This document shows, piece by piece, positions 4,313-23,272 of a stretch of DNA of 32,000 nucleotides (position 1 is its first letter; each line of letters begins with the position of its first letter). Made by a program: the position numbers and the translations under genes. Where the stretch lies: the NCBI RefSeq assembly GCF_002844595.1, contig NZ_PJNW01000016.1:827-32826 (forward strand), given 5' to 3'. The notes beneath the pieces are model-generated. The model saw nothing but the letters and a program-made list of their open reading frames with translations. It was not told where the DNA came from and made no database searches. Source of the DNA: Pleomorphomonas diazotrophica (GTDB taxonomy: Bacteria > Pseudomonadota > Alphaproteobacteria > Rhizobiales > Pleomorphomonadaceae).

Positions 4313-5944
4313 ATGACCGGGCGGTATCTCATCGGCCTCGACTTCGGGACGCTGTCAGTACGCGGAGTGCTGATCGACGCCGAGTCGGGCATCGCGATCG
4401 ATTACCATGCCTCACCCTACCGCCATGGTGTCATGAGCGGGTCTTTGGCGGACGGCACGCCCCTGCCCTCCGGCTTCGCCCTGCAAGACGCCCATGATTA
4501 CGTCGTTGCCGCCGAGGAGGTGCTCTGTCGCCTGGGGCAGCATCGCCATATCCTGTCGATCGGCATTGATTTCACGGCCTCGTCTCCCCTGCCGGCGACG
4601 GCCGACGGCACGCCTCTGTCGGCACTGTTGCCAAACGAGCCCCACGCCTATGTGAAGCTCTGGAAACACGCTGCCGCCCAACGCTACGCCGACGCCATCA
4701 ACGCCGCGGGCGGCGCCTTTCTCGACAACTTCGGCGGGCGGCTGTCGGGGGAGTGGCTGCTCGCCAAGGCGGCGCAGGTGGCGAGCGAAGCGCCGACGGT
4801 CTGGGCGCTGACCGAACGCTTCATCGAGGCCGGCGACTGGATGGTCTCGCAGCTTACCGGATGTGAGGCGCGCAATCTCGGTTTCGCCGCCTACAAGGCG
4901 CAATACTCTGCCGCTACCGGCTATCCGGAAGGCATCGTTCCCGGTCTGAACGCCCGCCTTGCTCCGCCACTGAAGGCCGGCAGCCCGGCCGGTGAGCTCA
5001 ACGCCGAGTGGCGCCGAAAAGCCGGCATCAAGGGGCCGGCAGTGGTGGCCGTGGCAGTGATCGACTCGCATGCAGTCTTGCCCGCGGTCGGCGCGGTCGA
5101 GGACGGCATGGCAGCCGGAGCTCTCGGAACATCGGCCGCATATTTGTTTCTAGCCGAGCGTCCGCTCAGCCTGCCTGCCGGTCTCGAAGGCATGGCGCGC
5201 GACGGCTCCCTGCCGGGCTTCTGGCTCCACGAGGCAGGACAAGCGGCCTTCGGCGACCTCCTCGCCTGGTTCGTCCGCACCTTCCCGCGCGGCTCAGATC
5301 TGGCGGCAAGCTTCGCAGCCTACAACGCCGAGGCGGCGATGCTGGAGCCGGGCGACAGTCATCTCGTCGGTCTCGATTGGTGGAATGGAAATCGCGTCCC
5401 CCACGCGGACTCACGGCTTTCGGGACTTCTGATGGGCTTCGGCATGGATACGACGGCCGCTGGCATCTACAGGGCTCTGATGGAGGCGATCTGCTACGGA
5501 ACGCGGCAGGTCATGGAGCTGGCCGCCGCAGGCAGCCTCGGCACGGGGCGGGTCGTCATGACCTCAGGCCTCGCCGAGACCAACCCGCTCTTGTTGACGA
5601 TCATGGCGGATGTCCTCGGCAGGGACATCGAGCTGCCGGAGATCGCGCATGCCACGGCGACCGGAGCCGCCATCCATGGCGCCGTCGCCGCGGGCGTGGT
5701 CGCCGATTTCCGCGACGGCGCCGCACGCTTCGGCGCGCGCTCGCGGCGGGTCTTCCATCCCGACCCGGACCGGTCCAAGCGCTATCAGCCGCTGTTTTCC
5801 ATCTACTGCGAGTTGGCAAGCCTCACGCCTGTGCAGGCGGCGATGCGGCGTATCGGACCGCAGAGGCGCGCACCTGACAACGCGCCGAACGCCATCGCCG
5901 GCCCATCGCTTGAAGATGGCAAACTGACGGCTACTTTTGGATAA
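4313..5944 (+). CDS. araB: FGGY-family carbohydrate kinase, ribulokinase (AraB)-like
   Basis: In-frame part of ORF 4196..5944. I chose ATG 4313 because GGGGAG lies 7 nt upstream. The N-terminus YLIGLDFGTLSVRGVLID...LPSGFALQDAHDYV closely resembles Bacillus-type AraB (IGVDFGTLSGRAVLV...LPRDWALQHPADYI). Length is 543 aa. Confidence 0.7.
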   Translation: MTGRYLIGLDFGTLSVRGVLIDAESGIAIDYHASPYRHGVMSGSLADGTPLPSGFALQDAHDYVVAAEEVLCRLGQHRHILSIGIDFTASSPLPATADGTPLSALLPNEPHAYVKLWKHAAAQRYADAINAAGGAFLDNFGGRLSGEWLLAKAAQVASEAPTVWALTERFIEAGDWMVSQLTGCEARNLGFAAYKAQYSAATGYPEGIVPGLNARLAPPLKAGSPAGELNAEWRRKAGIKGPAVVAVAVIDSHAVLPAVGAVEDGMAAGALGTSAAYLFLAERPLSLPAGLEGMARDGSLPGFWLHEAGQAAFGDLLAWFVRTFPRGSDLAASFAAYNAEAAMLEPGDSHLVGLDWWNGNRVPHADSRLSGLLMGFGMDTTAAGIYRALMEAICYGTRQVMELAAAGSLGTGRVVMTSGLAETNPLLLTIMADVLGRDIELPEIAHATATGAAIHGAVAAGVVADFRDGAARFGARSRRVFHPDPDRSKRYQPLFSIYCELASLTPVQAAMRRIGPQRRAPDNAPNAIAGPSLEDGKLTATFG

Positions 5945-5978
5945 AAATATACAAATATAGATCGTTTATGTTTGACTT
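5942..5978 (+). promoter_or_regulatory. Second copy of the AT-rich motif plus TTGACT -35-like hexamer upstream of the binding-protein gene
   Basis: TAAAAATATACAAA at 5942-5955 differs from 4169-4182 at one position. ATGTTTGACTT at 5968-5978 corresponds to ATGTTGACTT at 4186-4195. Motif-to-TTGACT spacing differs by 10 bp between the two copies. Confidence 0.35.
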
Positions 5979-6068
5979 CATCCATAATAGGTGTCAAATC
6001 GAGGTGGCCTCGGAGGAAGGCCAGGAGCCGACGAGGAACCGGCTCCGAACATAAACCGGGAGGAAACG

Positions 6069-7091
6069 ATGCAGGCTTCTCGTCACGGCAGGTCTCGCCA
6101 TGCGATCTCGGAGTTCACGGCGGGCTGCGCCGCATTTGCGCTCGTCTTCGGCCTCGCCGGCGCAGCCGGTGTCTCCGGCGCCCAGGCTGCCGACGTTATC
6201 GTCGGTCTGGTGACCAAGACCGAGGTCAATCCATTCTTCGTCAAGATGCGTCAGGCGGCCGAGGCCGAGGCAAAGGCCAAGGGGCTGACGCTGATCGCCC
6301 GCGCCGGCAAGTTCGACGGCGACAATGAGGGTCAGGTCGCAGCCATCGAAGACCTGATCTCGGCCGGCGCCAAGGGCATTCTGGTGACGCCCAACAACTC
6401 CTCCGGCATGCTCGGCGTCATCAAGAAGGCACGCGACGCCGGCGTGCTGGTGATTGCGCTGGATACGGCCACCGATCCGGCCGACGCGGTCGATGCCACC
6501 TTCGCCACCGACAACTTCCAGGCCGGCGTGCAGCAGGGCGCCTATGCCAAGGCGGCGCTCGGCGACAAGACGCCGGTGATTGCCATGCTCGACGGCACGC
6601 CCGGTGGCACGGTGGACACCTTCCGCCACGACGGCTTCCTGAAGGGCTTCGGCATTGCCGAAGGCGATCCGGCCATTGCCGGCGCCGCCATCACCAACGG
6701 CGCCCAGGACAAGGGCCAGATCGGGATGGAAAACCTTCTGTCCAAGAACGGCGACATCAACGTCGTCTATACCATCAACGAACCGGCGGCGGCCGGCGGC
6801 TACCAGGCCCTGAAGTCCTTCGGCAAGGAAAAGGACGTGATCCTGACCTCGATCGATGGCGGCTGCGCCGGCGTGCGCAATGTCCAGGCGGGGGTCATCG
6901 CGGCAACCGTGATGCAGTTCCCCTACAAGATGGCGTCGATGGGCGTCGACGCGGTGGCCGAATATGCCGCGTCGGGCAAGAAGCCGTCCGGTTTCGTCAA
7001 CACCGGCTCCTATCTGATCACCGACAAGCCGATGCCGGGGCTCGAGTCCAAGGACAGCGCATGGGGCCTCGAGAACTGCTGGGGTGACTGA
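6069..7091 (+). CDS. Sugar ABC transporter periplasmic binding protein (PBP1/CUT2, FrcB-like)
   Basis: In-frame part of ORF 5991..7091. ATG 6069 is preceded by GGGAGGA. Signal peptide ...GVSGAQA/AD. VTKTEVNPFFVKM and ALDT...ATFATDN are typical of ribose/fructose-type binding proteins. The C-terminal ...ENCWGD resembles FrcB. Confidence 0.8.
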   Translation: MQASRHGRSRHAISEFTAGCAAFALVFGLAGAAGVSGAQAADVIVGLVTKTEVNPFFVKMRQAAEAEAKAKGLTLIARAGKFDGDNEGQVAAIEDLISAGAKGILVTPNNSSGMLGVIKKARDAGVLVIALDTATDPADAVDATFATDNFQAGVQQGAYAKAALGDKTPVIAMLDGTPGGTVDTFRHDGFLKGFGIAEGDPAIAGAAITNGAQDKGQIGMENLLSKNGDINVVYTINEPAAAGGYQALKSFGKEKDVILTSIDGGCAGVRNVQAGVIAATVMQFPYKMASMGVDAVAEYAASGKKPSGFVNTGSYLITDKPMPGLESKDSAWGLENCWGD

Positions 7092-7103
7092 CCTCCTCCC
7101 AGT

Positions 7104-7143
7104 CCCGATGGTGCGCATTCGGCAGCGAAGGCGCGCCATCGGG
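7104..7143 (+). other. Intra-operon stem-loop after the binding-protein gene
   Basis: cccgatggtgcgc (7104-7116) pairs with gcgcgccatcggg (7131-7143) in a 13-bp stem with one G-U pair and a 14-nt loop. Confidence 0.5.
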
Positions 7144-7209
7144 TGCCGGCAGGCGTCTGGCGTCGCCGTTCTTCGGCTTCCCCCTGAGCCGACCGGCTGA
7201 TGCCTTCAC

Positions 7210-7240
7210 GGACCGGCGGGCTGACAGCGTCCGCCGGTCC
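7210..7240 (+). other. Second intra-operon stem-loop
   Basis: ggaccggcgg (7210-7219) and ccgccggtcc (7231-7240) form a perfect 10-bp stem with an 11-nt loop, followed by gctttc. Confidence 0.5.
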
Positions 7241-7271
7241 GCTTTCACGATACGTCAGTTGCGAGGTCCCC

Positions 7272-8257
7272 ATGAGCAGCGCAACCCCGTCAGCCCCCGA
7301 GGCCAGCGCCGGATTGCTTTCGCGCGTCAAGACCATACCCTCGGTGGGACCGGTCCTGGTTCTCCTGGCGTTTTGCCTGGTGTTCGCCGTCACCAACCCG
7401 CGCTTTCTTGCCCCACACAATCTGTCGATCATCCTGCAGCAGACCATCGTGGTAGGTACCCTGGCCATCGGCCAGACACTGGTGATCCTCACCGCCGGCA
7501 TCGATCTCGCCGTCGGCGCCATCTGCGTGCTCGGAACCATCGTCGCCGGAAAACTCGTCAATCTCGGCTACGATCCGATGCTGTCTATGCTGTTCGCAGT
7601 GGTCCTCTGCACCCTCTCGGGGCTTGTCGCGGGAACGCTGGTGAGCCGGCTCGACCTGCCACCGTTCATCGTGACTCTTGGCACACTCGGCATTCTGACG
7701 GCCGCCTTACGCCTCATCTCGCAGGGCGGTGCCTTTCCAGTGCAGGACAGCTTTCTCGGCCTGACCGGGAACACCTTCCGGGTCGGAAGCTTCGTTCTCA
7801 CCTATGGCGTGCTGGCCATGCTGCTGCTTTACGCGGCGGCCTGGTATCTTCTCAACGAGACGCGCTGGGGGCGACATGTCTACGCCATCGGCAACAACCC
7901 CGAGGCAGCACGACTGGTCGGCATTCCGGTTCGGCGACACCTCCTGCAGGTCTATGCGCTGGCCGGACTCATCTACGGCATCACCGCCTGGCTCGCCCTC
8001 GGCCGCATTCCCAACGCCGATCCCAACGCCCTACAGACCGCCAATCTCGATTCCATCACCGCCGTGGTGATCGGCGGTACCAGCCTGTTCGGCGGGCGCG
8101 GCGGCCTTGTGGGAACCTTGATCGGCGCCCTGATCGTCGGCGTTCTTCGCAACGGCCTGACGCTGGCCGGCATCGACCCGCTCTGGCAGGACCTCGTCAC
8201 CGGCATCCTGGTGATCCTGGCCGTGGCCTTCGACCAGCTTTCCCGCAGGAGGCGCTG

Positions 8258-8258
<1 letters not shown>
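7272..8258 (+). CDS. Sugar ABC transporter permease (CUT2, FrcC/RbsC-like)
   Basis: In-frame part of ORF 7200..8258. I chose ATG 7272 (MSSATPSAPE...). Multiple TM segments, and GGTSLFGGRGG is typical of the RbsC family. Confidence 0.85.
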
Positions 8259-9058
<800 letters not shown>

Positions 9059-9066: not shown

Positions 9067-9894
9067 TCAGCCGGCATCCGCCTCGCCGTCGTCGGGCGCG
9101 ACGATGAGCAGCGTGCCGGCGGCCTCAAGCGCCGCCTGGATATCGGACGGCGGCGGCGTGTCCGTAACCAGCGCGAAGACCCGCTCGAGCGAAGCCACCT
9201 TGGCGAAGGCATGACGACCGAACTTGCGACTGTCGGCCAGGACGATGGTCCGCCGCGCCGCCTCGATCATCGCCGCCATCATGGTGGCCTCGGACAGGTG
9301 GCTGGTCCAGAAGCCGGTGGCGTCGACGCCACCAACGCCGATGACGGCCGTGTCGGCGGCAATGGCTCCGGTGCCGACGAAGCCGACCGGACCGACCGTC
9401 ACCTGGGCGCCGGTGCGGATTTCGCCCCCGAGCAGATAGAGGTTCAGGATGGCGGCCGGCGGCACGACCGGCGGCAATCCGAGATTGTTGGTGACGATGG
9501 TCAGGCGCCGACGCATCTCCAGCGCTGCGGCAAAAGCGAGCGTGGTGGTACCGCCATTGACCAGCAGCGTCTCGCCATCGGCGATCAGCTCCGCCGCCGC
9601 CTGCCCGATGCGTGTTTTTGCCGCATGATGCGACTTCATGCGGAGATCGAAGGGCGTATCGGCGGTAGCCATGCTGGACGAAGGAAGCGCACCGCCATGG
9701 ATCCGGCTGACCAGACCCTGCTCGGCCAGGATGTCGAGATCGCGCCGGATGGTATCGAGCGACACGTCGAAACGCGCGCTCATATCCGTCACGGTGATCT
9801 GCCCCAACTGTTGGGCAAGACGGAGAATATCGGCCCGCCGTCGCGCCGGCAGCGTCGCGTCCGAGCCCGCCTTTTCCACGTCTTCCGTCATCAT
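9067..9894 (-). CDS. DeoR/GlpR-family transcriptional regulator
   Basis: 275-aa ORF with an N-terminal HTH (ITVTDMSARFDVSLDTIRRDLDIL) and a DeoR C-terminal sensor domain (LVNGGTTT, VIGVGGVD). It is divergent from the operon that starts at 10107. Confidence 0.9.
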   Translation of the reverse strand: MMTEDVEKAGSDATLPARRRADILRLAQQLGQITVTDMSARFDVSLDTIRRDLDILAEQGLVSRIHGGALPSSSMATADTPFDLRMKSHHAAKTRIGQAAAELIADGETLLVNGGTTTLAFAAALEMRRRLTIVTNNLGLPPVVPPAAILNLYLLGGEIRTGAQVTVGPVGFVGTGAIAADTAVIGVGGVDATGFWTSHLSEATMMAAMIEAARRTIVLADSRKFGRHAFAKVASLERVFALVTDTPPPSDIQAALEAAGTLLIVAPDDGEADAG

Positions 9895-10004
9895 CGCCGC
9901 CTGGACCGCTGTTGCACATATTCAGATTTGATCGAACCCTAGCATACCGCATTTGACGTCACAAAGTGGCACAAAGACGCATAATGACGCAAAATATCGT
10001 GCTG

Positions 10005-10043
10005 TTTTATGCTTGACAGTTCCGCTTTATGCGGCTTTTATCG
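10005..10043 (+). promoter_or_regulatory. Sigma70-type promoter (CTTGACA-N17-TTTTAT) overlapped by direct repeats (candidate DeoR operators)
   Basis: TTGACA at 10013-10018 and TTTTAT at 10036-10041 with a 17-nt spacer. Repeats are TTTTATGC (10005-10012), CTTTATGC (10025-10032) and TTTTATCG (10036-10043). An inverted GCATAA lies at 9979-9984. Further upstream are CACAAAG twice (9960-9966, 9970-9976) and the palindrome TGACGTCA (9954-9961). Confidence 0.5.
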
Positions 10044-10106
10044 GCCAGCTCATGAGAGAAGTTTCGCCAATCGGACGAAACCCCGGAGCACAAGGGAGTG
10101 AAACGC

Positions 10107-11423
10107 ATGACTGACAAAGACGATCATGTCGGCAAGCCCATGGGTGTCGGGCGCCGTCAATTCCTGAAAGTGGCTGGTCTCACCACCGGCGGCGTGCTGG
10201 CCGCACCGGCGATCCTGAAGCTCACGTCGGTCGCCTCCGCGGCGGACCGCACCAACATCACCTTCGCCAGCGCGAAGTTCTTCGGCAAGCGCACCGTCGC
10301 CGAGATGGTGGATGTGTTCAACCAGTCCCAGAGCCGCATCCTCGTCCGCTACGACGAGCTGCCGCCGCCGAGTTCCTCGACGGAAGTCCATCAGGGCTTG
10401 GTGCAGCGCCTCGCCAAGAAGGACGGCTCGCCCGACGTCTTCACGCAGGACGTCGTCTGGATCGCCGAATTCGCTGGCGCCGGCTGGGCTCTGCCGCTCG
10501 ACGAGTATGTGAGCGCCGACGAGGCGGGAGCCTATTTCCCCGGCGTGCTGGCGGCCTGCAAATGGCAAGGCAAGCTGACCGCCCTGCCCTGGTATGTCGA
10601 CAGCGGCATGCTCTACTACCGAAAAGATCTCGTCTCCAAGGCGCCGGAAACCTGGGACGAGCTGGTCGCCGCCGCGACGGACCTCATGAAGGCAGGCAAG
10701 GCCAAGATCGGCTTCTCCTGGCAGGCCAAGCAGGCCGAGGTGCTGATCTGCGATCTCGTGGAGTTCGTGACCTCCAACGGCGGCAGCATCCTCGGCGACG
10801 ACGGCAAGACCGTTCACATCGCCGACGACGCGGCGATCGAGGCCGTGCAGTTCATGTATGACACCATCGAGAAGTACAAGATCAGCCCGCCGGACGTCCG
10901 GAGCTGGGACGAGGAGCCCTCGCGCACGCCGTTCACCGGCGGCGACGTCGCCTTCCTGCGCAACTGGTCCTACGTTTACTCCATCTGCCAGGACAAGGCG
11001 GCCTCCTCGGTGGTCGACAAGGTCGGCGTCGTGCCGCTGCCGCATTTTGCCAACGGCAAGAGCGCTGCCTGCCTCGGCGGCTACCAGTATGGCGTCAATG
11101 CCTCGACCAAGAACCGGGACGCGTCCGTCGAGTTCCTGAAATGGCTGTCGAGCCCGGAGACGCAGCTGCTGTTCGCCACCGAACTCGGTCTCGCTCCGAG
11201 TCGGCCGGCCGTGTTCGACAGCGCCGAACTCGGCAAGGCGCAGCCGTTCATGCAGACGCTGAAGCCGGTGTTCGTCGGCGCCACGGCGCGTCCGGTCACG
11301 CCGAAATACTCTCAGGTCTCCCTGGCGCTGCAGTCGGCCGTTTCCAAGGCCGTCACCAACGGCAACGTCGCCGACGCGCTCAAGGACGCCAAGGCCAAGC
11401 TTGAGGGCATCGTCGGCGCATGA
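10107..11423 (+). CDS. ABC transporter extracellular solute-binding protein, family 1 (CUT1), Tat signal
   Basis: ORF 10098..11423. ATG 10107 is preferred because AAGGGAG lies about 9 nt upstream; GTG 10098 is also possible. Twin-arginine motif GRRQFLKVAG and a MalE-like fold (DVFTQDVVWIAEFAGAGW, WYVDSGMLYYRKD). Confidence 0.85.
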   Translation: MTDKDDHVGKPMGVGRRQFLKVAGLTTGGVLAAPAILKLTSVASAADRTNITFASAKFFGKRTVAEMVDVFNQSQSRILVRYDELPPPSSSTEVHQGLVQRLAKKDGSPDVFTQDVVWIAEFAGAGWALPLDEYVSADEAGAYFPGVLAACKWQGKLTALPWYVDSGMLYYRKDLVSKAPETWDELVAAATDLMKAGKAKIGFSWQAKQAEVLICDLVEFVTSNGGSILGDDGKTVHIADDAAIEAVQFMYDTIEKYKISPPDVRSWDEEPSRTPFTGGDVAFLRNWSYVYSICQDKAASSVVDKVGVVPLPHFANGKSAACLGGYQYGVNASTKNRDASVEFLKWLSSPETQLLFATELGLAPSRPAVFDSAELGKAQPFMQTLKPVFVGATARPVTPKYSQVSLALQSAVSKAVTNGNVADALKDAKAKLEGIVGA

Positions 11424-12367
11424 CCACGCTTCCGTCAGCCGGCCTCACGGCCGGCAACCGACGGAGCAAACGACTGACGCAGAGGAGCCGTGCCGAACGG
11501 TGGGCGCCTCTGCTCTTTCTCCTGCCCGCGGTCCTCACCCTCATCACCGTCTCCGTCTATCCCGTTCTCGACGGCATGCGCCTTTCCTTGCGCAACACCA
11601 TGCTGTCGACCCAGGAAGACGACTTCGTCGGCCTCGCCAACTATGTCCGGCTCACCGGCGATCCGCAATTCTGGTCGGCCTGGCAGCACACCATGCTGTT
11701 TACCGCCGCATCGACGCTGCTCGAGACGGTGATCGGCATGGCCATGGCGCTGGTTCTCTACGAGACCTTCAAGGGCCGGGGCTGGGTGAGGGCCGCGATG
11801 CTGGTTCCCTGGGCCATTCCCACCGTCGTGACCTCCAAGATGTTCGGCTGGCTGTTCGACGGCCAGCACGGCGTGGTCAACTGGTTGCTGAGGCAAGCCG
11901 GCCTGATCGACGGCTACGTCAACTGGTATGGCGACAGCCAGACCGCGCTTCTCACCATCATCATCGCCGACGTCTGGAAGACGACGTCCTTCATGGCGCT
12001 GTTGCTGCTGGCCGGTCTGCAAACGGTGCCGCATTCGCTGGTCGAGGCCGCACGGATCGACGGCGCGGGTTCCTGGCAGTGCTTCTGGTCGATCCGGCTG
12101 CCGCTGTTGTTCACGACGCTGCTGATCGCCGGCATGTTCCGCGCCCTCGACGCCTTCCGCATCTTCGACCTCGTCTACGTGCTGACGGGCGGCGGGCCGG
12201 CCGACTCCACCGAGGTTCTGTCGACCCTGTCCTACAAGGTCCTCTTCTCGGGGCTCGACTTCGGCTACGGCAGCGCGCTCTCGGCGGCCATGTTCATCAC
12301 CGAGGCGATCATCGCGCTGGGCTTCGGTCTTTTCATCGTTCGCCGCATGCGGCGCGACAACGGCTGA
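11420..12367 (+). CDS. Carbohydrate ABC transporter permease (MalF/UgpA-like)
   Basis: 315-aa ORF. ATG 11420 overlaps the binding-protein TGA (ATGA). EAA-loop region EAARIDGAGSWQCFWSIRLPLL. Confidence 0.9.
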   Translation: MTTLPSAGLTAGNRRSKRLTQRSRAERWAPLLFLLPAVLTLITVSVYPVLDGMRLSLRNTMLSTQEDDFVGLANYVRLTGDPQFWSAWQHTMLFTAASTLLETVIGMAMALVLYETFKGRGWVRAAMLVPWAIPTVVTSKMFGWLFDGQHGVVNWLLRQAGLIDGYVNWYGDSQTALLTIIIADVWKTTSFMALLLLAGLQTVPHSLVEAARIDGAGSWQCFWSIRLPLLFTTLLIAGMFRALDAFRIFDLVYVLTGGGPADSTEVLSTLSYKVLFSGLDFGYGSALSAAMFITEAIIALGFGLFIVRRMRRDNG

Positions 12368-12377
12368 GGAGGAAACC

Positions 12378-13223
12378 ATGCTGTCTTCCTGGCGCACCCA
12401 GCTCCTGATCACCCGGATCGCGCTCTACGTGGCCTCGGCCCTGATCGTCGTCTGGTCGGTGGCGCCCTTCCTGTGGCAGGTGTCGACGTCCTTCCAGGAG
12501 GATCGACTACTGTCGGCGCCAACACCGAGTTTCCTGCCCTGGCCGGGCACCCTCGACCATTTCCGCAACATCTTCGTCGAGAAAGAGTTCCACCTCTACA
12601 TAGTCAACTCGGCCATCGTGGCGGGATTGACCACGCTGTTCTGTCTCGCCATCGGCGGAGCCGCCGCCTTCGCTCTGGCCCGTCTGCGCGTCTACTACCG
12701 CTTCGGCATCCTGGCGCTGATCCTGTCGGTGTCGATGTTCCCGCAGATCGCCATCGTCGCGCCGCTCTATCTCGCCGCGTCGGCGCTCGGGCTGATGAAC
12801 ACCTACACCATCCTCGTCATCATCTACCTGTCGCTCGGCCTGCCGCTGGTGATCTGGGTGCTGTTCGGCTACTTCCAGACCATTCCGCGAGAGATCGACG
12901 AGGCCGCCATCATCGACGGCGCCGGGCCGTTGCGCCTGATGATCTCGGTCATCCTGCCGATGTCGCTGCCCGGCTTCGTCACCACCGGCCTCCTCGCCTT
13001 CATCATGGCCTGGAACGAGTTCATGTTCGCGCTCGCCTTCACCTCGGGCGTCGATCGCCAAACCATTCCCGTCGGCATCGCCAACTTCACCAACCTCTAC
13101 TACGTCCCCTGGGGCGACCTCGCCGCCGCCTCCGTGGTGGTGACGCTGCCGCTGGTCCTGCTGGTGCTCGGCTTCCAGCGCTGGATCATCCAGGGGCTGA
13201 CGCAGGGCGCGGTCAAGGAATGA
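12378..13223 (+). CDS. Carbohydrate ABC transporter permease (MalG/UgpE-like)
   Basis: 281-aa ORF with GAGGAGGA upstream. EAA loop DEAAIIDGAGPLRLMISVILPM. Confidence 0.9.
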   Translation: MLSSWRTQLLITRIALYVASALIVVWSVAPFLWQVSTSFQEDRLLSAPTPSFLPWPGTLDHFRNIFVEKEFHLYIVNSAIVAGLTTLFCLAIGGAAAFALARLRVYYRFGILALILSVSMFPQIAIVAPLYLAASALGLMNTYTILVIIYLSLGLPLVIWVLFGYFQTIPREIDEAAIIDGAGPLRLMISVILPMSLPGFVTTGLLAFIMAWNEFMFALAFTSGVDRQTIPVGIANFTNLYYVPWGDLAAASVVVTLPLVLLVLGFQRWIIQGLTQGAVKE

Positions 13224-14542
13224 TCGCCATGAGCATCCCCCATGCCAAACCCACGGCGTCGATCGATTGGGCCCGCGCCTATGACCGGCTCGTTGACGGG
13301 ATACCGGCTGTCGTTGCGGACGCGACAAGGCTGGTCACCGGCTTTGCCGTCTGCCTCGATCGGCGGATCGACCTGCACGCCGTCGCACCAATCCTCGCCG
13401 ATCGCCCGGAAGTCGGCGCCCAGCGCCTGTTCGCCGAGTTGATGGCCCGCGCCAAGGCCGGTCGCGGCGGTGAAATGCTGGTAGGCGACTGGCCCGGCGG
13501 GCCATCCTTCTTCGATCCGCATACCTTGCCGGGCGGCACGGCGATCGGCGGCACGTCGGCCCAGGCGGCCTGGACGCTGGCGGCGATCGGAGCGCCCTCC
13601 CTGCTCGCTCTCGGCGAGGTCGGGCCGGAGGAGCTCGCCGCGCTGCACGCCGGCATCGGATTGGCCGAAAGCGAGACGACGGTCGGCTCGCCGCGCCGCC
13701 GCTGGCCGGCGCTTTGCGACAAGCCGGCGCACTACATCGTCGAGTATACCGCCGGCCACCCCCTGCCCGGCTTCGTTGCCGAACGGTCGACCCGCATCAT
13801 CGTCCGTTTCGCCGACGAAGCCCTGCATGAAGACGCCCTGTTCGACCGTTGGGTCGCGGCGAATGGACATCAGTTGCGCGCCGGTCTGCTGTCATCTCCG
13901 AATACCATTCCGCTTGCCGAGCTGCCGGTCGCCCTTGCGCGCCTGTCAGGGGCGGCACGGGCCTGGCGCAGGTCCGGCTTGTCGGTCGTCCACCTCGAAC
14001 TCGGCGCCTATCCCTGGCCCGGAACGCTCGATGCGACGCTGGAAAGCCTGGCGCCCGAGGTCACGTCGATCGGTCTCAATCAGAACGAGCTGCGCGGCCT
14101 GGTGCCGGGCGATGATCCGGTCGAGCAGGCGGACGCGCTGTCGCGGTGGCTCGGCGTCGATCGCCTGGTCGTTCACGCCGACGGTTGGGCGCTTGCCGTC
14201 ACCCGCGGCGACGCAAGGGTGGAGATGGACGCGCTCGCCATGGGCTGCCTGCTCGCCGCCTCGCGTGCCGAGGCCGGCCAGCCGTCGTCGCGACCACGTA
14301 TCCCGCATGGAGCGCGCTTCGATCCGCCGCCTGCTCCGCCGGTGTCGCGGCTGCCGGATGGTCGCCAGATCGTCTGCGTCGCCGCTCCCTATCTCGAACG
14401 CCCCGCCTCGACCGTCGGCCTCGGCGACAGTTTTACCGCCGGCTGCCTCCTCATTCATTCCATCGTCGATCACCAGCCCGTTCTCGGCTTGGCCGATTTG
14501 GCCGCGCCGGCTGGCTCCGAAACAGACTTACGGAGACCGTAA
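13220..14542 (+). CDS. ADP-dependent glucokinase/phosphofructokinase-family sugar kinase (ribokinase superfamily), substrate unknown
   Basis: C-terminal 440 aa of ORF 12473..14542. ATG 13220 overlaps the permease TGA 13221-13223. It can be aligned block by block with Pyrococcus ADP-GK from memory: GFAVCLDRRIDL vs LLGYNTNIDA, TAIGGTSAQAA vs LRMGGQAGIMA, VVHLELG (HxE, 13991-13999), IGLNQNEL (NxxE, 14078-14089), LVVHADGWALAVT vs IHFHTYGYYLALT, STVGLGDSFTAG (GxGD, 14417-14428) vs STVGIGDTISSS. Confidence 0.75.
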   Translation: MIAMSIPHAKPTASIDWARAYDRLVDGIPAVVADATRLVTGFAVCLDRRIDLHAVAPILADRPEVGAQRLFAELMARAKAGRGGEMLVGDWPGGPSFFDPHTLPGGTAIGGTSAQAAWTLAAIGAPSLLALGEVGPEELAALHAGIGLAESETTVGSPRRRWPALCDKPAHYIVEYTAGHPLPGFVAERSTRIIVRFADEALHEDALFDRWVAANGHQLRAGLLSSPNTIPLAELPVALARLSGAARAWRRSGLSVVHLELGAYPWPGTLDATLESLAPEVTSIGLNQNELRGLVPGDDPVEQADALSRWLGVDRLVVHADGWALAVTRGDARVEMDALAMGCLLAASRAEAGQPSSRPRIPHGARFDPPPAPPVSRLPDGRQIVCVAAPYLERPASTVGLGDSFTAGCLLIHSIVDHQPVLGLADLAAPAGSETDLRRP

Positions 14543-15618
14543 TGGCACCCGTTTCCCTCAGGTCCGTCACCAAGGCCTATGGCTCATTCGAGGTGATCCA
14601 CGGCATCGATCTGGAGATCGAGGACGGTGCCTTCGTCGTCCTGGTCGGCCCGTCGGGCTGCGGCAAGTCGACGCTGCTCCGAATGATCGCCGGCCTTGAA
14701 ACGATCAGTGGCGGTGAGGTGGTCATCGACGGCGAGGTGATGAACGATGTGCCGCCCAAGCACCGCGACATTGCCATGGTGTTCCAGAACTACGCGCTTT
14801 ACCCGCATATGACGGTGGCGCAGAACATGGGCTTCTCGCTACGCCTCACCAAGGTGCCCCAGGCGGAAGCGGCGGAAAAGATCAGGGCCAGCGCCGACAT
14901 CCTCGGCCTCACCGACCTGCTCGACCGCTATCCCCGCCAGCTGTCCGGCGGTCAGCGCCAGCGCGTCGCCATGGGCCGGGCGATCGTCCGCAACCCCAAG
15001 GTCTTCCTGTTCGATGAGCCGCTCAGCAACCTCGACGCTGCCCTGCGCATGCAGATGCGCGTCGAGATCGCCGAACTGCACCAGAAGCTCGGTACCACCA
15101 TGATCTACGTGACGCACGATCAGGTGGAGGCGATGACGCTCGCCACCAAGATCGCCGTCGTCAACAAGGGCAGGCTCGAACAGGTGGCGCCGCCGGTTCG
15201 TCTCTATGAGCGGCCGCAGAACCTCTTCGTCGCCCGGTTCATCGGCGCACCGCAAATGAACATTCTGCCCGCCCGCCTTGCCGGCGCCGCTGAGGCGCGC
15301 CTTGGCGATGGAAGCGTGATCGCCCTGCGGCGATCGATGCCGCTTGGCGAAGGGAGCGGCGTGAGCGTCGGCATCCGCCCCGAAGCCCTGCTGCTTTCAG
15401 AAGACGGACCGCTCGGTGGCCGCGTCACCCTCGCCGAGCATCTCGGCGGCCTGACGCTCGTCCATATCGCCCTCACCGACGGAACGCCGGTGGTTCTACA
15501 GGCGGTCGGAGCTCCCACCGTCGCAGTGGGCGACCTCGTCCGCCTGCGCATCGATCCGGCTGGATTGCATCTGTTCGATCCAGAGGGGCGCCGCATCTCC
15601 ACCCCCGGCGAAAGCTGA
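14542..15618 (+). CDS. Carbohydrate ABC transporter ATP-binding protein (MalK/UgpC-like)
   Basis: C-terminal 358 aa of ORF 14146..15618. ATG 14542 overlaps the TAA of the kinase gene (TAATG). Walker A GPSGCGKST, LSGGQRQRVA, Walker B FLFDEPLSNLD, and a C-terminal MalK-type regulatory/TOBE domain. Confidence 0.9.
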   Translation: MAPVSLRSVTKAYGSFEVIHGIDLEIEDGAFVVLVGPSGCGKSTLLRMIAGLETISGGEVVIDGEVMNDVPPKHRDIAMVFQNYALYPHMTVAQNMGFSLRLTKVPQAEAAEKIRASADILGLTDLLDRYPRQLSGGQRQRVAMGRAIVRNPKVFLFDEPLSNLDAALRMQMRVEIAELHQKLGTTMIYVTHDQVEAMTLATKIAVVNKGRLEQVAPPVRLYERPQNLFVARFIGAPQMNILPARLAGAAEARLGDGSVIALRRSMPLGEGSGVSVGIRPEALLLSEDGPLGGRVTLAEHLGGLTLVHIALTDGTPVVLQAVGAPTVAVGDLVRLRIDPAGLHLFDPEGRRISTPGES

Positions 15619-15689
15619 CCTTCCCGCAACGCCGCCACGAAAGCCGGCGGCAACCCAACCCAAGAAACCAAGTACCCAAGGAGAACTCG

Positions 15690-16694
15690 ATGTTTCGCAT
15701 GAATGCCAAGCTCGCCAAGATCCGGGCCGGCAACTACGCCAAGGGCGACTTCATCATCGCCGACGCCAAGGACGGCGACATGTCCAACCCTATCCCCGGC
15801 ACCGGGCCGATCCGCGACAAGGACGGCAAGTTCGTCCGTTTCCGGACGCGAGCCGAGTTCCTGGAGATGATCACCGATCTGATCCGCCAGGACCTGCTCG
15901 ACATCATGCTGGTGTCCTGTTCCAACCTTGAGCTGCTGCAGGAGGCCGGTGCCTTCAAGAACAGCCCGGTGCGGCCGGCCTTCCGCGCCAACGACACCAC
16001 CGACATCTGGGGCGCCCGGCCCAACGGCTATGGCAAGCTCGGCCCGTCGCGCCCGTTCCGCACCCCGTCGCTGAAGCGGATATCCGAGGCCAAGCTCGGA
16101 AACCTCGGCCTTTACTCGATCACCTTCGTCAACGACATCGAGGCCGACTTGAGGTCGCTCGAAGCCTTCAGCGAGTTCCGCGAGGACGCGGCCAAGAACG
16201 GCATCGAGTATTTCCTGGAAGTGTTCAATCCCAACGTCGAGTGCGGCATCGCGCCGGCGGACGTCGGCTCGTTCGTCAATGACAACCTCGCCCGCTGCCT
16301 GTCGGGCGTGCTGCGCGCCGACCGGCCGCAGTTCCTGAAGTATCCCTACAACGGCGCCAAGGCGCTGGAGGAACTGGCCTCCTATGACCCGCAGCTGGTG
16401 GTGGGCGTGCTCGGCGGTGGTGCCGGCACCACGCGCGACACCTTTGAGCTGCTGTTCCAGGCCGAGAAATACGGCGCTCGCGTCGCCCTGTTCGGCCGCA
16501 AGATAAATCTCGCCGAAAGCCAGCTCGACATGGTCCGCCACATGCGCGCGGTGGCCGACGGCGAGATGAGGCCGCTCGAAGCCGTCAGGTCCTACCACGC
16601 CGTGCTCAAGGAAAAGGGCATCTCCCCGGTCCGCAGTCTCGACGACGACAGCATCGTCACCGAGGCGGTCCTGAAGGCCGCGGCCTCCGCCTGA
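15690..16694 (+). CDS. Class I aldolase-like TIM-barrel protein (DeoC/DhnA-FbaB archaeal type), substrate unknown
   Basis: 334-aa ORF with GGAG upstream. QFLKYPYNG (Lys codon 16338-16340) resembles the Schiff-base segment GADIVK(x)xYTG of archaeal/DhnA aldolases. VGVLGGGAG..D....GARVALFGRKI resembles NSGGAAG...GGMGLILGRKAF of E. coli FbaB. N-terminal FIIADAKDGD lies where the DHG substrate-binding strand is expected. Confidence 0.6.
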   Translation: MFRMNAKLAKIRAGNYAKGDFIIADAKDGDMSNPIPGTGPIRDKDGKFVRFRTRAEFLEMITDLIRQDLLDIMLVSCSNLELLQEAGAFKNSPVRPAFRANDTTDIWGARPNGYGKLGPSRPFRTPSLKRISEAKLGNLGLYSITFVNDIEADLRSLEAFSEFREDAAKNGIEYFLEVFNPNVECGIAPADVGSFVNDNLARCLSGVLRADRPQFLKYPYNGAKALEELASYDPQLVVGVLGGGAGTTRDTFELLFQAEKYGARVALFGRKINLAESQLDMVRHMRAVADGEMRPLEAVRSYHAVLKEKGISPVRSLDDDSIVTEAVLKAAASA

Positions 16695-16715
16695 CACCGT
16701 TTCCATGCAGCCTCT

Positions 16716-16748
16716 CGCCCGGAGCGATCCTCCCGCTCCGGGCGTTTT
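16716..16748 (+). terminator. Rho-independent terminator closing the DeoR-linked operon
   Basis: cgcccggagcg (16716-16726) and cgctccgggcg (16734-16744) form a perfect 11-bp stem with a 7-nt loop, followed by TTTT (16745-16748). It lies 22 nt after the stop at 16694. Confidence 0.85.
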
Positions 16749-16904: not shown

Positions 16905-17678
16905 ATGAAATCTGTTGGTCTCTGGGCGGCCGCTGCTGCCATCAATCTCGCGTTTGCCGGCGCAGCCGTAGCTGCCGACGACCTCGCCGCTGTCAAGGAA
17001 GCCGGCGTTCTCCGCATCGGCACCGAAGGTACTTATGCGCCCTTCACCTACCATGACGAGAGCGGCAAGCTGGTCGGCTTCGACGTCGAGATCGGCGAGG
17101 CGATTGCCGGCAAGCTGGGCGTCAAGCCCGAGTTCATCGAGGGCAAGTGGGACGGCCTGATCGCCGGCCTCGACGCCAACCGCTACGACACCGTCATCAA
17201 CCAGGTCGGCATCACCGAAAAACGCAAGGAGAAGTATGACTTCTCCAAGCCCTACATCGTGTCCAAGGCTGTGCTGATCGTCCGCGCCGATGACGAGAGC
17301 ATCAAGGGCTTTGCCGATCTCAAGGGCAAGAAGTCGGCTCAGTCGCTGACCAGCAACTTCGGTGCGTTGGCCACCGAAGCGGGAGCCGAACTGGTCGGCA
17401 CCAACGGCTTCGACGAGTCGATCCAGCTCGTGCTGACCCGGCGTGCCGACGCGACCATCAACGACAGCCTGTCCTTCCTGGACTTCAAGAAGCACAAGCC
17501 CGACGCGCCGGTGAAGATCGTCGCCGAAAAGGAGGAAGCCGACGCCTCCGGCATCATCGTGCGCAAGGGGCAGACGGACCTGGTCGCCGCCATCGACAAG
17601 GCGCTCGATGACATCAAGGCCGACGGTACCTACCAGAAGATCGCTGACAAGTATTTCGGGCAGGACGTGTCGAAATAA
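16905..17678 (+). CDS. Polar amino acid ABC transporter substrate-binding protein (cystine-binding FliY/TcyJ-like)
   Basis: 257-aa ORF with signal peptide ...AGAAVA/ADD. PBP3 motifs GTEGTYAPFTY, GFDVEIGEAIA and KYDFSKPY. Confidence 0.85.
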   Translation: MKSVGLWAAAAAINLAFAGAAVAADDLAAVKEAGVLRIGTEGTYAPFTYHDESGKLVGFDVEIGEAIAGKLGVKPEFIEGKWDGLIAGLDANRYDTVINQVGITEKRKEKYDFSKPYIVSKAVLIVRADDESIKGFADLKGKKSAQSLTSNFGALATEAGAELVGTNGFDESIQLVLTRRADATINDSLSFLDFKKHKPDAPVKIVAEKEEADASGIIVRKGQTDLVAAIDKALDDIKADGTYQKIADKYFGQDVSK

Positions 17679-17741
17679 TCGGTGCCCCAGGCCGGAACCG
17701 AACATCGACGTTGCGTTTTCCTGACAAGTGCTCTGAACTGA

Positions 17742-17766
17742 CCGGGGTGGCAACCTGCCGCCCCGG
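17742..17766 (+). other. Stem-loop between the binding-protein and permease genes
   Basis: ccggggtggc (17742-17751) pairs with gccgccccgg (17757-17766) in a 10-bp stem with one G-U pair and a 5-nt loop, followed by pyrimidine/U-rich ctctgctgtgtctgctttcc. Confidence 0.5.
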
Positions 17767-17804
17767 CTCTGCTGTGTCTGCTTTCCGAATTCGAGGAGTC
17801 CGAG

Positions 17805-18485
17805 GTGCCCCCCTGGCTTCATCTCATGGCGGAGTCGCTGCCTTCCCTGCTCTGGGCCGGGCTCGTCTTCACCATCCCGCTGACCCTTCTGTCTTTCACC
17901 TTCGGACTGGCGCTGGGTCTTGTGACCGCGCTGGTGCGCCTGTTCGGGCCGCTGCCGCTCGCCCTCCTCGCCCGTTTCTTCGTCTGGGTCTTCAGAGGAA
18001 CGCCGCTGCTCGTCCAGCTGTTCGTGATCTTCTATGGACTGCCGAGCCTCGGCATCTATCTCGACGCTTTCCCGGCCGCGCTGATCGGCTTCACCCTCAA
18101 CGTCGGCGCCTATGGCTCCGAGACCATCCGCGCGGTGATCTCGGCGGTTCCCAAGGGGCAATGGGAGGCCGCCTACTCGATTGGCATGAGCTGGCGGCAG
18201 TGCCTCATCCGAACCATCCTGCCGCAGGCCACCAAGATCGCCGTGCCGCCGCTCTCCAACAGCTTCATTTCCCTGGTGAAGGACACATCGCTCGCTGCCG
18301 CCATCACCGTGCCGGAGCTGTTCCAAGCGGCACAGCGCATCGTCGCCACCACCTATGAGCCGCTCATCCTCTATATCGAGGCGGCGCTGATCTACCTTGC
18401 GCTGAGCTCGGTGCTGTCGCATCTGCAGCAGCGCCTCGAGCAGCGCTTCGGCCGCTATGGTGGCAGCCTGGAGGCGAACCCGTGA
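17805..18485 (+). CDS. Amino acid ABC transporter permease (His/Glu/Gln/Arg/opine family; YecS/TcyL-like)
   Basis: 226-aa ORF. GTG 17805 has GAGGAG 6 nt upstream; ATG 17826 is an alternative. FRGTPLLVQLF and EAAYSIGMSWRQCLIRTILPQA motifs. Confidence 0.85.
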   Translation: MPPWLHLMAESLPSLLWAGLVFTIPLTLLSFTFGLALGLVTALVRLFGPLPLALLARFFVWVFRGTPLLVQLFVIFYGLPSLGIYLDAFPAALIGFTLNVGAYGSETIRAVISAVPKGQWEAAYSIGMSWRQCLIRTILPQATKIAVPPLSNSFISLVKDTSLAAAITVPELFQAAQRIVATTYEPLILYIEAALIYLALSSVLSHLQQRLEQRFGRYGGSLEANP

Positions 18486-19243
18486 TCGAGCTCAGGAACA
18501 TCGTCAAGCGCTTCGGCGAGACCACCGTTCTCAACGATATCAACGTCGCCATCGCCGAGGGTACGGTGACGGCGCTGGTCGGGCCATCCGGCGGCGGCAA
18601 GAGCACGCTCCTGCGCTGCATCAATCTCCTGGAGATTCCCACCTCCGGCACGCTCCTCCTCGGCGGCGAGAGCCTCACCTTCCGGCCGGGCCACCGACCC
18701 GGCTGGCCGGCGATCCAGGCCATCCGCCGCCAGACCGGCATGGTGTTCCAGAACTTTCAGCTCTTCCCCCACCGCACCGCCATCGAGAATGTCATGGAGG
18801 GACCGCTGACGGTGCTGAACTGGCCGAAGGACAAGGCACGGCAACGGGCCGGCGAGTTGCTCGAAAAGGTCGGCCTTTCGCAGAAGGCGGATGCCTGGCC
18901 CTCAACGCTGTCGGGCGGCCAGCAGCAGCGCGTCGCCATCGCCCGGGCGCTCGCCATGTCGCCGCGCGTGTTGCTCTGCGACGAACCGACCTCGGCGCTC
19001 GATCCGGAACTGGCGCTCGAGGTGGTGGACGTGTTGAGCCGGCTCGCCGACGAAGGCACCACCATGGTGATCGCCACACACGATCTCCGCCTCGCGTCCC
19101 GCATCGCCAGGAACGTCGTGTTCCTGGAAGGCGGCCTCGTCGTGGAAACCGGTCCGTCGCAGCAGATCTTCACCAACCCGGCCCAGGAGCGCACCAAGCG
19201 CTTCGTGTCGTCGATCACAGCGCCGCAGGTCTACGACATCTAG
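18482..19243 (+). CDS. Amino acid ABC transporter ATP-binding protein (YecC/TcyN-like)
   Basis: 253-aa ORF. GTG 18482 overlaps the permease TGA (GTGA). Walker A GPSGGGKST, LSGGQQQRVAIARAL, Walker B LLCDEPTSALD. Confidence 0.9.
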   Translation: MIELRNIVKRFGETTVLNDINVAIAEGTVTALVGPSGGGKSTLLRCINLLEIPTSGTLLLGGESLTFRPGHRPGWPAIQAIRRQTGMVFQNFQLFPHRTAIENVMEGPLTVLNWPKDKARQRAGELLEKVGLSQKADAWPSTLSGGQQQRVAIARALAMSPRVLLCDEPTSALDPELALEVVDVLSRLADEGTTMVIATHDLRLASRIARNVVFLEGGLVVETGPSQQIFTNPAQERTKRFVSSITAPQVYDI

Positions 19244-19643: not shown

Positions 19644-20639
19644 ATGACACGGAGGGCGGAGGAGGTCATCTACCCCACTGACGCGGGGCTTTACTGCGTG
19701 CCGGGGGACTTCTACATCGACCCGCTCCGTCCTGTTCCCCGCGCCCTCGTCACACACGGCCATGCCGATCACGCCCGTCCCGGCCATGGCGCAGTGATGG
19801 CCACCCGCGAGACGCTCGACATCATGGCGATCCGCTACGGCGACGATTTCGCCGGTAGCCGCCAGATCGCCGAGGGACCGGTCCGGATCGGGGCCGTGAC
19901 GGTGAGCTTCCATCCGGCGGGCCATGTGCTCGGCTCGAGCCAGATCCTGATCGCCCCCGATCACGGCCCACGCATCCTGATCTCGGGCGATTACTGTCGC
20001 ACGCCGAACCCGGTCTGCCAGCCTTGGGAGCCGGTTAACTGCGATATCTTCATCACGGAGGCGACCTTCGGCCTGCCGATCTTTCGCCACCCAGATCCCA
20101 TGACCGAGGCCGGACGGTTATTGACCAGCATGGCCGAGTTTCCGGGCCGCCCTCACCTGATCGGGGCCTATGCCCTCGGCAAGGCGCAGCGCGTGATCGC
20201 GTTGGCGCGGGCGGCGGGCCATCATGGCCCCATTGCCATTCATGGCGCGCTGAAACGCCTCTGCGACTATCACGTCGACCAGGGGATTGACCTTGGCCCG
20301 CTGGTTCCGGCAACCGATCCCGGCGAGGCGCAACTGATTTTGGCGCCGCCCTCGGCCTTTGCCTCACCCTGGGTGCAGCGCTTCCGCGATCCGGTTCTCT
20401 CCTACGCCTCCGGCTGGATGACCGTCCGCGCCCAAGCCCGCCGGCGCGGCATCGAGCTACCGCTGGTGATCAGCGACCATGTCGACTGGCCGCAACTGAC
20501 CGCTACCATCCGCGAACTCGCCCCACAGGAGGTCTGGATTACCCATGGCGCCGAGGACGGCCTGACGCGGTGGTGCGAGATCGAGGGCATTTCCTCCCGT
20601 CCGCTCAGGCTGATCGGCTATGAGGACGAGCCGGAATGA
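19644..20639 (+). CDS. Ligase-associated DNA damage response exonuclease (metallo-beta-lactamase/beta-CASP fold)
   Basis: 331-aa ORF with MBL motif VTHGHADHA. It starts 9 nt after the DUF883 stop, and its stop overlaps the ligase ATG (ATGA at 20636-20639). This pairing is typical of the bacterial Lhr/ligase/exonuclease/PdeM gene set. Confidence 0.8.
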   Translation: MTRRAEEVIYPTDAGLYCVPGDFYIDPLRPVPRALVTHGHADHARPGHGAVMATRETLDIMAIRYGDDFAGSRQIAEGPVRIGAVTVSFHPAGHVLGSSQILIAPDHGPRILISGDYCRTPNPVCQPWEPVNCDIFITEATFGLPIFRHPDPMTEAGRLLTSMAEFPGRPHLIGAYALGKAQRVIALARAAGHHGPIAIHGALKRLCDYHVDQGIDLGPLVPATDPGEAQLILAPPSAFASPWVQRFRDPVLSYASGWMTVRAQARRRGIELPLVISDHVDWPQLTATIRELAPQEVWITHGAEDGLTRWCEIEGISSRPLRLIGYEDEPE

Positions 20640-23261: not shown

Positions 23262-23272
23262 CTCTTCCTCTC

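Follow-up and report, generated by a model that had tools for sequence, protein, structure and literature searches.

Several described routes of sugar catabolism rely on a kinase that is followed by an aldolase. In the sulfo-Embden-Meyerhof-Parnas (sulfo-EMP) pathway, with the enzymes YihV and YihT, and in a Paracoccus pair consisting of a PfkB kinase and the aldolase 8tnf, a ribokinase-superfamily kinase produces a ketose 1-phosphate and a class I aldolase cleaves it into dihydroxyacetone phosphate (DHAP) and an aldehyde. Ketose 1-phosphates are the substrate type of DHAP-dependent aldolases. The Lsr system follows a related order: LsrF acts on a phosphorylated keto compound that is made by a kinase after import through an ATP-binding cassette (ABC) system. 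LsrF itself is a coenzyme A (CoA)-dependent thiolase of AI-2 processing. The LacC/LacD route and the ABC-linked D-tagatose cluster of Escherichia coli Nissle (PMC9720028) also couple ABC- or phosphotransferase system-linked ketohexose phosphorylation to subsequent cleavage, but here a bisphosphate is cleaved after two phosphorylations. In the recently recognised IolC-DUF2090 proteins (Cgl0159-type) of myo-inositol catabolism, divergent LacD-like aldolases are fused to PfkB kinases or encoded beside them (PMC9007349). A 32,000-nucleotide stretch of Pleomorphomonas diazotrophica DNA (positions 827 to 32,826 of contig NZ_PJNW01000016.1; this whole stretch is called the window below) carries a transporter operon whose genes point to an uncharacterised catabolic route, which is built on the known kinase-then-class I aldolase logic and is no new kind of system.

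The operon lies on the plus strand. Its first gene encodes a CUT1-type solute-binding protein with a twin-arginine signal (10107, or 10098, to 11423). It is followed by the genes for a MalF/UgpA-like permease (11420-12367), a MalG/UgpE-like permease (12378-13223), a 440-aa kinase of the ADP-dependent sugar kinase family (13220-14542), a MalK/UgpC-type ATPase with a TOBE domain (14542-15618) and a 334-aa aldolase-like (beta/alpha)8 protein of an unnamed family (15690-16694). The gene for a DeoR/GlpR-family regulator (9067-9894, minus strand) is divergent from the operon. The open reading frame (ORF) listing and the domain searches recovered all seven genes at the coordinates given in a preliminary description of the locus; for the ATPase gene its presence stands, but the start at 14540 had to be corrected to 14542. 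Also retained is the statement that the operon contains only two enzymes, the kinase and an aldolase-superfamily protein, the latter recognised by its predicted fold, its family profile and its genomic context.

We consider it rather probable, though far from certain, that this operon serves the import and direct phosphorylation of a keto compound and its Schiff-base aldol cleavage to DHAP and an aldehyde, with the DeoR protein sensing the phosphorylated intermediate. The binding protein, exported through the twin-arginine translocation (Tat) route, and the ABC transporter would import a keto-sugar-like compound. The kinase would phosphorylate the primary hydroxyl group beside the carbonyl, and the last protein, as a divergent class I aldolase with Lys217 in its active site, would split the phospho-ketose into DHAP and an aldehyde. 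The DeoR protein would repress the substrate-inducible operon until the phosphorylated intermediate accumulates. By analogy, the operating logic would be that of YihV/YihT, LacC/LacD, IolC/IolJ, IolC-DUF2090 and mammalian ketohexokinase/aldolase B. The locus differs from the YihV/YihT and Paracoccus pairs in that it has no isomerase, sulfonate-processing or export genes, in that its kinase is of the ADP type and not PfkB, and in that its aldolase-like protein comes from a different, unnamed family. The enzymes of the LacC/LacD and E. coli Nissle routes are not orthologous to those of the window, and the Nissle cluster reportedly uses a class II aldolase.

The product of the kinase gene clearly belongs to the ADP-dependent sugar kinase family. 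It matches the ADP_PFK_GK model (PF04587) with 57.2 bits against a gathering cutoff of 27, as the preliminary description had expected, and PF04587 is present in 120 of 120 kinase homologs among the matches listed. A profile built from 21 family members finds solely ADP-dependent glucokinases (ADP-GK) and phosphofructokinases (ADP-PFK) in the PDB (E 5e-20). The AlphaFold2 (AF2) model of the kinase (predicted local distance difference test score, pLDDT, of 92) retrieves 22 ADP-GK/PFK chains in Foldseek with E-values from 4e-22 to 4e-15 and, for the best of them, template modelling (TM) scores of 0.72-0.76; the PfkB ribokinases follow at about 1e-8, with a clear gap below these matches. In the characterised enzymes the Asp of the GXGD motif acts as catalytic base and Mg-ADP is bound through the HXE and N/DXXE motifs (PMC7948494). 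The corresponding segments of the window kinase are G400-L-G-D403, H258-L-E260 and N287-Q-N-E290. The residues H258, E260 and D403 are invariant in the 21 family members, and E290 of the NXXE-type motif is nearly invariant (at least 90% of the members). The kinase is probably active.

Family, fold, the GXGD Asp, HXE and the N/DXXE-type Glu are shared with ADP-GK, ADP-PFK and ADPGK. However, the window kinase belongs to a bacterial, mainly alphaproteobacterial clade, shares 14-19% identity with the archaeal and mouse ADP-dependent kinases, and has a changed sugar site. It is also encoded in a transporter operon together with an aldolase, outside central glycolysis. The sugar contacts of ADP-PFK are N32, N34 and Q116, located in N-x-N-x-D and G-G-Q (PMC7948494). 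The window kinase has A-x-C-x-D in place of the former and G-G-T in place of the latter, with the Asp and both Gly residues retained, and in the profile alignment the family consensus G-l-a-a-c-v-D is aligned with G-y-N-T-N-i-D. The NCBIfam equivalogs are not reached either, with 39 bits against a cutoff of 387 for the glucokinase and 19 against 408 for the phosphofructokinase. The specificity of the kinase is probably for neither glucose nor fructose 6-phosphate, and its phosphate donor may be ADP or ATP. In the databases, automated naming has labelled these proteins "ADP-dependent glucokinase/phosphofructokinase", a misnomer for a kinase whose sugar-binding residues differ, and one member of the aldolase-like family "DhnA family aldolase".

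The last protein of the operon has no Pfam, NCBIfam or PDB sequence match. It had been described as a DhnA/FbaB-type or DeoC/LacD-type aldolase, but sequence models do not recognise it as such: there is no match to PF01791 at E<=0.01, and a scan of 22 diverse family members (31-92% identity) at E<=10 retrieved neither PF01791 nor PF09863 nor another aldolase model. Its AF2 model (pLDDT 81) contains eight beta/alpha units and two low-confidence loops. The top Foldseek matches are LsrF, ADH synthase, the archaeal class IA fructose-bisphosphate (FBP) aldolase, LacD, YihT and Cgl0159, with a probability of 1.0 throughout and, for the leading matches, TM-scores of 0.53-0.60 and 12-16% identity. DeoC/LacD/DhnA-type proteins account for 48 of the 50 top matches, including the sulfohexulose-1-phosphate aldolase 8tnf; the remaining two, an FBP aldolase of Slackia heliotrinireducens and an N-acetylneuraminate lyase, are both class I aldolase-type TIM barrels. 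The only significant sequence-profile match of the family is to LsrF (E 2.6e-5). The predicted fold, the weak profile match and the conserved residues described below still place the last protein in the class I aldolase superfamily, and its aldolase nature is supported by fold, profile and genomic context.

In the alignment with LsrF, K217 of the last protein (within "F-L-K") falls on a position that is a lysine in 3glc and an alanine in the 4p2v chain. We take this position to be K203 of LsrF, mutated to Ala in 4p2v. K217 lies on the predicted strand 216-219, which is strand 6 and corresponds to the beta-6 Schiff-base position. It is invariant in an alignment of 29 sequences, is retained by 19 of 22 members from a more diverse set, and is proposed here as the Schiff-base lysine. 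The G-G and G-R-K/N phosphate-site motifs are conserved and aligned with LsrF as well, and the family shows little or no variation at D25, K27, D28, E177, K217, G242, G243, G269 and R270. LsrF is the best match in both structure and profile, and its Schiff-base lysine is aligned; it differs in sharing only 14% identity with the last protein, and LsrG, LsrK and LsrR are absent from the window locus. The likeness to the IolC-DUF2090 proteins lies in the apparent PfkB fusions of the window's aldolase-like family and in its usual PfkB partner, which scores best with the IolC model. On the other hand, none of the 22 members matches PF09863, no other inositol genes are present, and Cgl0159 (3fok) ranks 17th among the structural matches. 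An analogue of the myo-inositol IolC/IolJ pair was rejected because no further iol genes and no PF09863 match were found. The family is large, with at least 7,971 significant clusters at 90% identity and 891 representatives at 50% identity, and its members are labelled "hypothetical protein" almost throughout. The hosts are mostly Alphaproteobacteria, and also Verrucomicrobia, Myxococcota, Actinobacteria, Vibrio and beta- and gammaproteobacteria.

The pairing of the two enzymes was assessed from both sides. Eighty metagenomic loci were fetched with the kinase profile alone, 26 of which have at least 2.5 kb on both sides of the kinase gene. An aldolase is encoded in 24 of these 26 loci: in 14 it is a member of the aldolase-like family, and in ten a canonical PF01791 aldolase, encoded directly downstream of the kinase. 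One such canonical aldolase (locus L117, 9244-10278) scores 70 bits with PF01791 and is closest to 8tnf (E 2e-39), followed by the sulfofructose-phosphate aldolase YihT and by LacD, all of which are ketohexose 1-phosphate or bisphosphate aldolases. The sister operons that carry the canonical enzyme are otherwise similar to the window operon, with identities of 57-68% for the binding protein, 64-70% for the permeases and about 50% for the DeoR regulator. Behind the same kinase and transporter, one gene position is occupied by either of two aldolase lineages. No other observation speaks as strongly for the last gene of the window operon as the one that encodes the cleaving enzyme, and aldol cleavage to DHAP by this protein is supported indirectly, by analogy with the YihT/8tnf-like aldolases that replace it. 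The import-phosphorylate-cleave pathway suggested in the preliminary description is strengthened by the same replacement, and the neighbourhood comparison shows kinase and aldolase genes side by side in dozens of independent loci, which is beyond chance. In one subgroup of the sister operons a shikimate-dehydrogenase-like gene (L117, 10332-11189) follows the ADP-type kinase and the LacD/YihT-like aldolase; the same gene occurs in L116, L131, L133, L161 and others. The encoded enzyme may act on the aldehyde released by cleavage, or may be a clue to the class of the substrate. In L148, one of the few kinase loci with no aldolase nearby, a 3-hydroxyisobutyrate/YihU-type dehydrogenase is encoded beside the kinase (7405-8577, minus strand).

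From the side of the aldolase-like family, a ribokinase-superfamily kinase gene adjoins the aldolase-like gene in 70 of 87 loci; 53 of these kinases are PfkB proteins encoded directly downstream and 17 are of the ADP type. The cluster representatives P0252 (727 aa) and P0258 (674 aa) are apparent fusions of an N-terminal aldolase-like part and a C-terminal PfkB part. All eight retrieved loci with an aldolase-like protein at least 76% identical to that of the window contain an ADP-type kinase, and seven of the eight contain a DeoR regulator. The interchange of PfkB and ADP-type kinases, and of the new family and YihT/LacD-like aldolases, around similar transporters is a clear example of non-orthologous displacement. 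Both kinase variants of the module can be held by one genome: Pleomorphomonas oryzae DSM 16300 has a second aldolase-like copy, 60% identical, followed by a PfkB kinase gene (locus L020, 10001-12045). This copy is located near gpsA, beside another FGGY kinase and a CUT2 transporter. These FGGY and CUT2 genes are just 26-35% identical to those of the window; a module common to the window and L020 was rejected, and the adjacency in L020 is regarded as coincidental. In L087, from a Rhizobium leguminosarum WSM strain, an operon with an ADP-type kinase, a CUT1 transporter, a short-chain dehydrogenase/reductase (SDR) and the aldolase-like gene ends with a class II fructose-bisphosphate-type aldolase (PF01116; 13497-14555), and thus two different aldolases are encoded in one locus.

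In some variants, ketose-generating enzymes are encoded ahead of the module. An FGGY kinase and a GlpD-like flavin adenine dinucleotide (FAD) dehydrogenase are found in Agrobacterium pAt plasmids and in one Vibrio plasmid, the cluster of which also encodes an alcohol dehydrogenase and an aldehyde dehydrogenase. An SDR gene precedes the module in Rhizobium, Mesorhizobium and Sinorhizobium, and genes for a Gfo/Idh/MocA oxidoreductase and a xylose-isomerase-like barrel protein do so in Kaistia. When a GlpD-type enzyme oxidises a polyol phosphate, the product is a ketose 1-phosphate; EryB catalyses such a step in erythritol catabolism. By this analogy the FGGY kinase and the GlpD-like dehydrogenase would yield a ketose 1-phosphate for the aldolase-like protein. 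An erythritol-type pathway as such was rejected, since the GlpD-like variants contain no analogues of EryC, EryH and EryI.

The description of the locus as a DeoR-linked CUT1 ABC operon agrees with Pfam and NCBIfam matches to all regulator and transporter parts. The regulator has an N-terminal HTH_DeoR domain (59 bits) and a C-terminal DeoRC sensor domain (135 bits), stays under all NCBIfam equivalog cutoffs, and has an ortholog of 50-92% identity beside the kinase in most related loci. The importer comprises an SBP_bac_1 protein (E 5e-44), two BPD_transp_1 permeases, of which the MalG/UgpE-like one scores 122 bits with the NCBIfam MalG model, under its cutoff, and a MalK-type ATPase with the domains ABC_tran, OB_MalK and TOBE_2, which matches the NCBIfam UgpC subfamily with 469 bits, over the cutoff. 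The Tat signal of the binding protein is evident from the twin-arginine motif GRRQFLKVAG. The best solved relative of this protein is the trehalose/maltose-binding protein of T. litoralis, 1eu8 (E 3e-75); a second trehalose/maltose binder, Thermotoga MalE3 (E 3e-71), the sulfoquinovosyl-glycerol binder SmoF, the trehalose-binding LpqY and the 6j9w series are further relatives. The 6j9w series is deposited merely as 'ABC transporter periplasmic substrate-binding protein' and is presumably a beta-glucoside binder of Thermus. Because the nearest solved relatives bind trehalose/maltose or sulfoquinovosyl-glycerol, the assumption of a small free ketose is disfavoured. Of the ketose or ketose-like import proposed earlier, a keto-sugar-like cargo is kept, but a small ketose is now less well supported.

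The operon is preceded in the window by a second catabolic operon, whose genes were assigned with Pfam and NCBIfam. It consists of the genes for a ROK regulator (2823-4085, minus strand), a ribulokinase-like FGGY kinase (4322-5944), and a CUT2 binding protein (5991-7091), permease (7200-8258) and ATPase (8255-9058). The region 2823-9058 has orthologs on the Shinella plasmid p1, with identities of 85% for the binding protein, 81% for the permease, 86% for the ATPase, 62% for the ROK regulator and 59% for the FGGY kinase. The synteny is real, and on the plasmid this operon runs directly into an aldolase-like gene and a PfkB kinase gene. In the window these two genes are missing after 9058, and the DeoR operon is found instead, across a convergent gap of 8 bp. 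A related CUT2 binding protein (49-89% identity) is encoded in 17 other loci of the aldolase-like family, in about ten of them directly upstream of the aldolase-like gene. The sole kinase-aldolase pair beside the CUT2 transporter of the window is the pair of the DeoR operon. From the Shinella orthology and from this sole adjacent pair it follows that the ROK/FGGY/CUT2 and DeoR operons probably form one catabolic island. The boundaries 9067-16748 given earlier hold for the DeoR operon itself, but are probably too narrow for the island, as the upstream region is orthologous to operons that end in an aldolase-like gene and a PfkB gene.

Several observations weigh against direct phosphorylation and aldol cleavage of a ketose. 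The last protein matches no aldolase Pfam model, LsrF, the solved protein nearest to it in fold, is a thiolase, the TM-scores are modest, two loops of the model are of poor confidence, and a few very divergent members of the family do not have the aligned lysine. The operon encodes no enzyme for the aldehyde product, and related loci only sometimes contain aldehyde dehydrogenases or reductases of the beta-hydroxyacid-dehydrogenase type. The best solved relatives of the binding protein bind disaccharides and no glycosidase is encoded, so that the substrate may perhaps be no simple ketose.

The first group of these observations would also fit a last protein that is not an aldolase and whose Schiff-base lysine serves another reaction, either a CoA-dependent thiolase or acyl transfer reaction of the LsrF type or a transaldol reaction like that of ADH synthase. 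LsrF is top in structure and the only significant profile match, the ADH synthase of M. jannaschii comes next, and the family is too divergent for all aldolase Pfam models. Yet a canonical YihT/8tnf/LacD-type aldolase holds the position of this protein in the sister operons, the neighbourhood has no conserved gene for an LsrG-like isomerase or a CoA-related function, and the contexts with a GlpD-like dehydrogenase predict a plain ketose 1-phosphate as the substrate; we regard a non-aldolase function as quite unlikely. The nature of the cargo raises a different question. The trehalose/maltose-binding relatives, and the fact that CUT1 systems usually carry di- and oligosaccharides, would be in line with a glycoside or disaccharide, perhaps ketose-containing or anionic, which is phosphorylated as such, with its hydrolysis or later steps encoded elsewhere. 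However, none of the cluster variants has a conserved gene for a glycoside hydrolase or phosphorylase, ligand specificity is not reliably transferable between such distant binding proteins, and a kinase-then-aldolase pairing needs no glycosidase, which makes this explanation an improbable one.

The upstream operon suggests a tagatose-like or phosphofructokinase-like route with two kinases. In such a route a ketose imported by the CUT2 transporter would be phosphorylated at its distal end by the FGGY kinase and at C1 by the ADP-type kinase, and the bisphosphate would be cleaved into DHAP and an aldose phosphate. It would account for the Shinella unit, in which ROK, FGGY, the CUT2 transporter, the aldolase-like gene and PfkB are joined, and for the recurrence of the CUT2 binding protein in the 17 other loci; moreover, ADP-PFKs belong to the kinase family and LacD-type aldolases cleave bisphosphates. 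But an FGGY match of any identity occurs in just six of the 87 loci, a strong one (59-61%) in just three of the 17 other CUT2-linked loci, and many genomes have the DeoR/CUT1/kinase/aldolase unit with no FGGY kinase. The two operons are separately transcribed under different regulators, and the Asn residues with which ADP-PFK holds the phosphate of fructose 6-phosphate are Ala and Cys here. The two-kinase route is unlikely, though not negligibly so, and less likely than direct phosphorylation and cleavage. Ordinary glycolysis of the euryarchaeal type, with an ADP-glucokinase or phosphofructokinase and a class IA FBP aldolase acting on a common sugar, is very improbable. It has in its favour the kinase family membership and the automated names quoted above. 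The link to the modified Embden-Meyerhof pathway drawn in the preliminary description was, however, reduced to at most a family-level resemblance: the identity to the characterised enzymes is just 12-19% (14-19% for the kinase and 12-16% to the archaeal FBP aldolase), the residues of N-x-N-x-D and G-G-Q are replaced, the NCBIfam scores are far under their cutoffs, and the genes belong to a dedicated, regulated transporter operon.

The genes of the operon are tightly packed. The binding protein and permease genes share an ATGA (11420-11423), a second ATGA is found at 13220-13223, and the kinase and ATPase genes share a TAATG (14540-14544); the overlaps, of four bases, four bases and one base, are as had been reported. 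For the binding protein, the ribosome-binding site AAGGGAG is at a more favourable distance from the ATG at 10107 than from the GTG at 10098. A promoter-like site at 10013-10041 on the plus strand had been called strong. It has a perfect -35 element (TTGACA) and a 17-nt spacer, but its -10 element, TTTTAT, is weak with four of six matching positions, and the site was not reported by a consensus promoter scan. Likewise, the terminator placed at 16716-16748 contains a good hairpin at 16716-16744, with an 11-bp G+C-rich stem (-29.7 kcal/mol, z -2.9), but is not as clean as described, since the hairpin is followed by just four U; because of this short T-run it is missing from the list of a terminator scan. 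The divergent intergenic region between the DeoR and binding-protein genes comprises 212 bp and contains the direct repeat GTGCTGTTTTATGC / GTTCCGCTTTATGC and an inverted repeat (9973-9984 / 10027-10038). These repeats may be candidate operators, though they are too short and too few for an operator call.

The G+C content of the operon genes is 0.64-0.70, compared with 0.64 for the window, and the composition is uniform along the operon. The closest proteins are from Pleomorphomonas, the last gene showing 96% identity to that of P. oryzae. A megablast search of the whole operon against plasmids gave matches to the transporter genes alone, at about 75% identity. Recent horizontal transfer from archaea was rejected on account of the G+C content, which is near that of the window, and of an identity to the archaeal enzymes below 20%.

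Uptake systems are unusually numerous in the window. Downstream of the operon, an amino-acid ABC system is encoded at 16905-19243. A CUT2 (ribose-type) ABC system on the minus strand (22251-25797) consists of a permease, a double ATPase and a binding protein, and is followed by genes for a second binding protein (25924-26973) and a nicotinamide adenine dinucleotide (NAD)-dependent epimerase (26958-27938). Another CUT2 (ribose-type) ABC system (28057-29827) adjoins the gene for a LacI-family regulator (29805-30875). An ATP-dependent DNA ligase with all three ligase domains is encoded at 20636-22195, and its gene has a 4-bp overlap with an upstream 331-aa ORF with no Pfam match (19644-20639). 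At the other end of the window, the start of a family 21 glycosyltransferase gene (508-1650, minus strand) overlaps the end of a gene for a calcineurin-like metallophosphoesterase (1647-2489, minus strand).

No published characterisation of the kinase-aldolase module was found in the literature searched, which took in few subscription journals, and the module is likely to be novel. We tentatively propose, as a plausible but by no means assured wider reading, that it represents a modular 'phosphorylate and cleave' system of Alphaproteobacteria and scattered soil and aquatic bacteria. Such a system would combine a class I aldolase family that Pfam does not cover with interchangeable kinases, either PfkB proteins or truly ADP-dependent kinases of new specificity, and would catabolise a compound new as a bacterial growth substrate, perhaps a substituted or glycosylated ketose. 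The combination of a kinase with a class I aldolase is well known from catabolism. Both enzymes come here from unassigned branches of their superfamilies. If the substrate is found, thousands of annotations could be corrected and a new carbon-source pathway would be added to plant-, peat- and soil-associated Alphaproteobacteria. It would also become testable whether mesophilic aerobic bacteria use ADP-dependent phosphorylation, which is usually linked to archaea.

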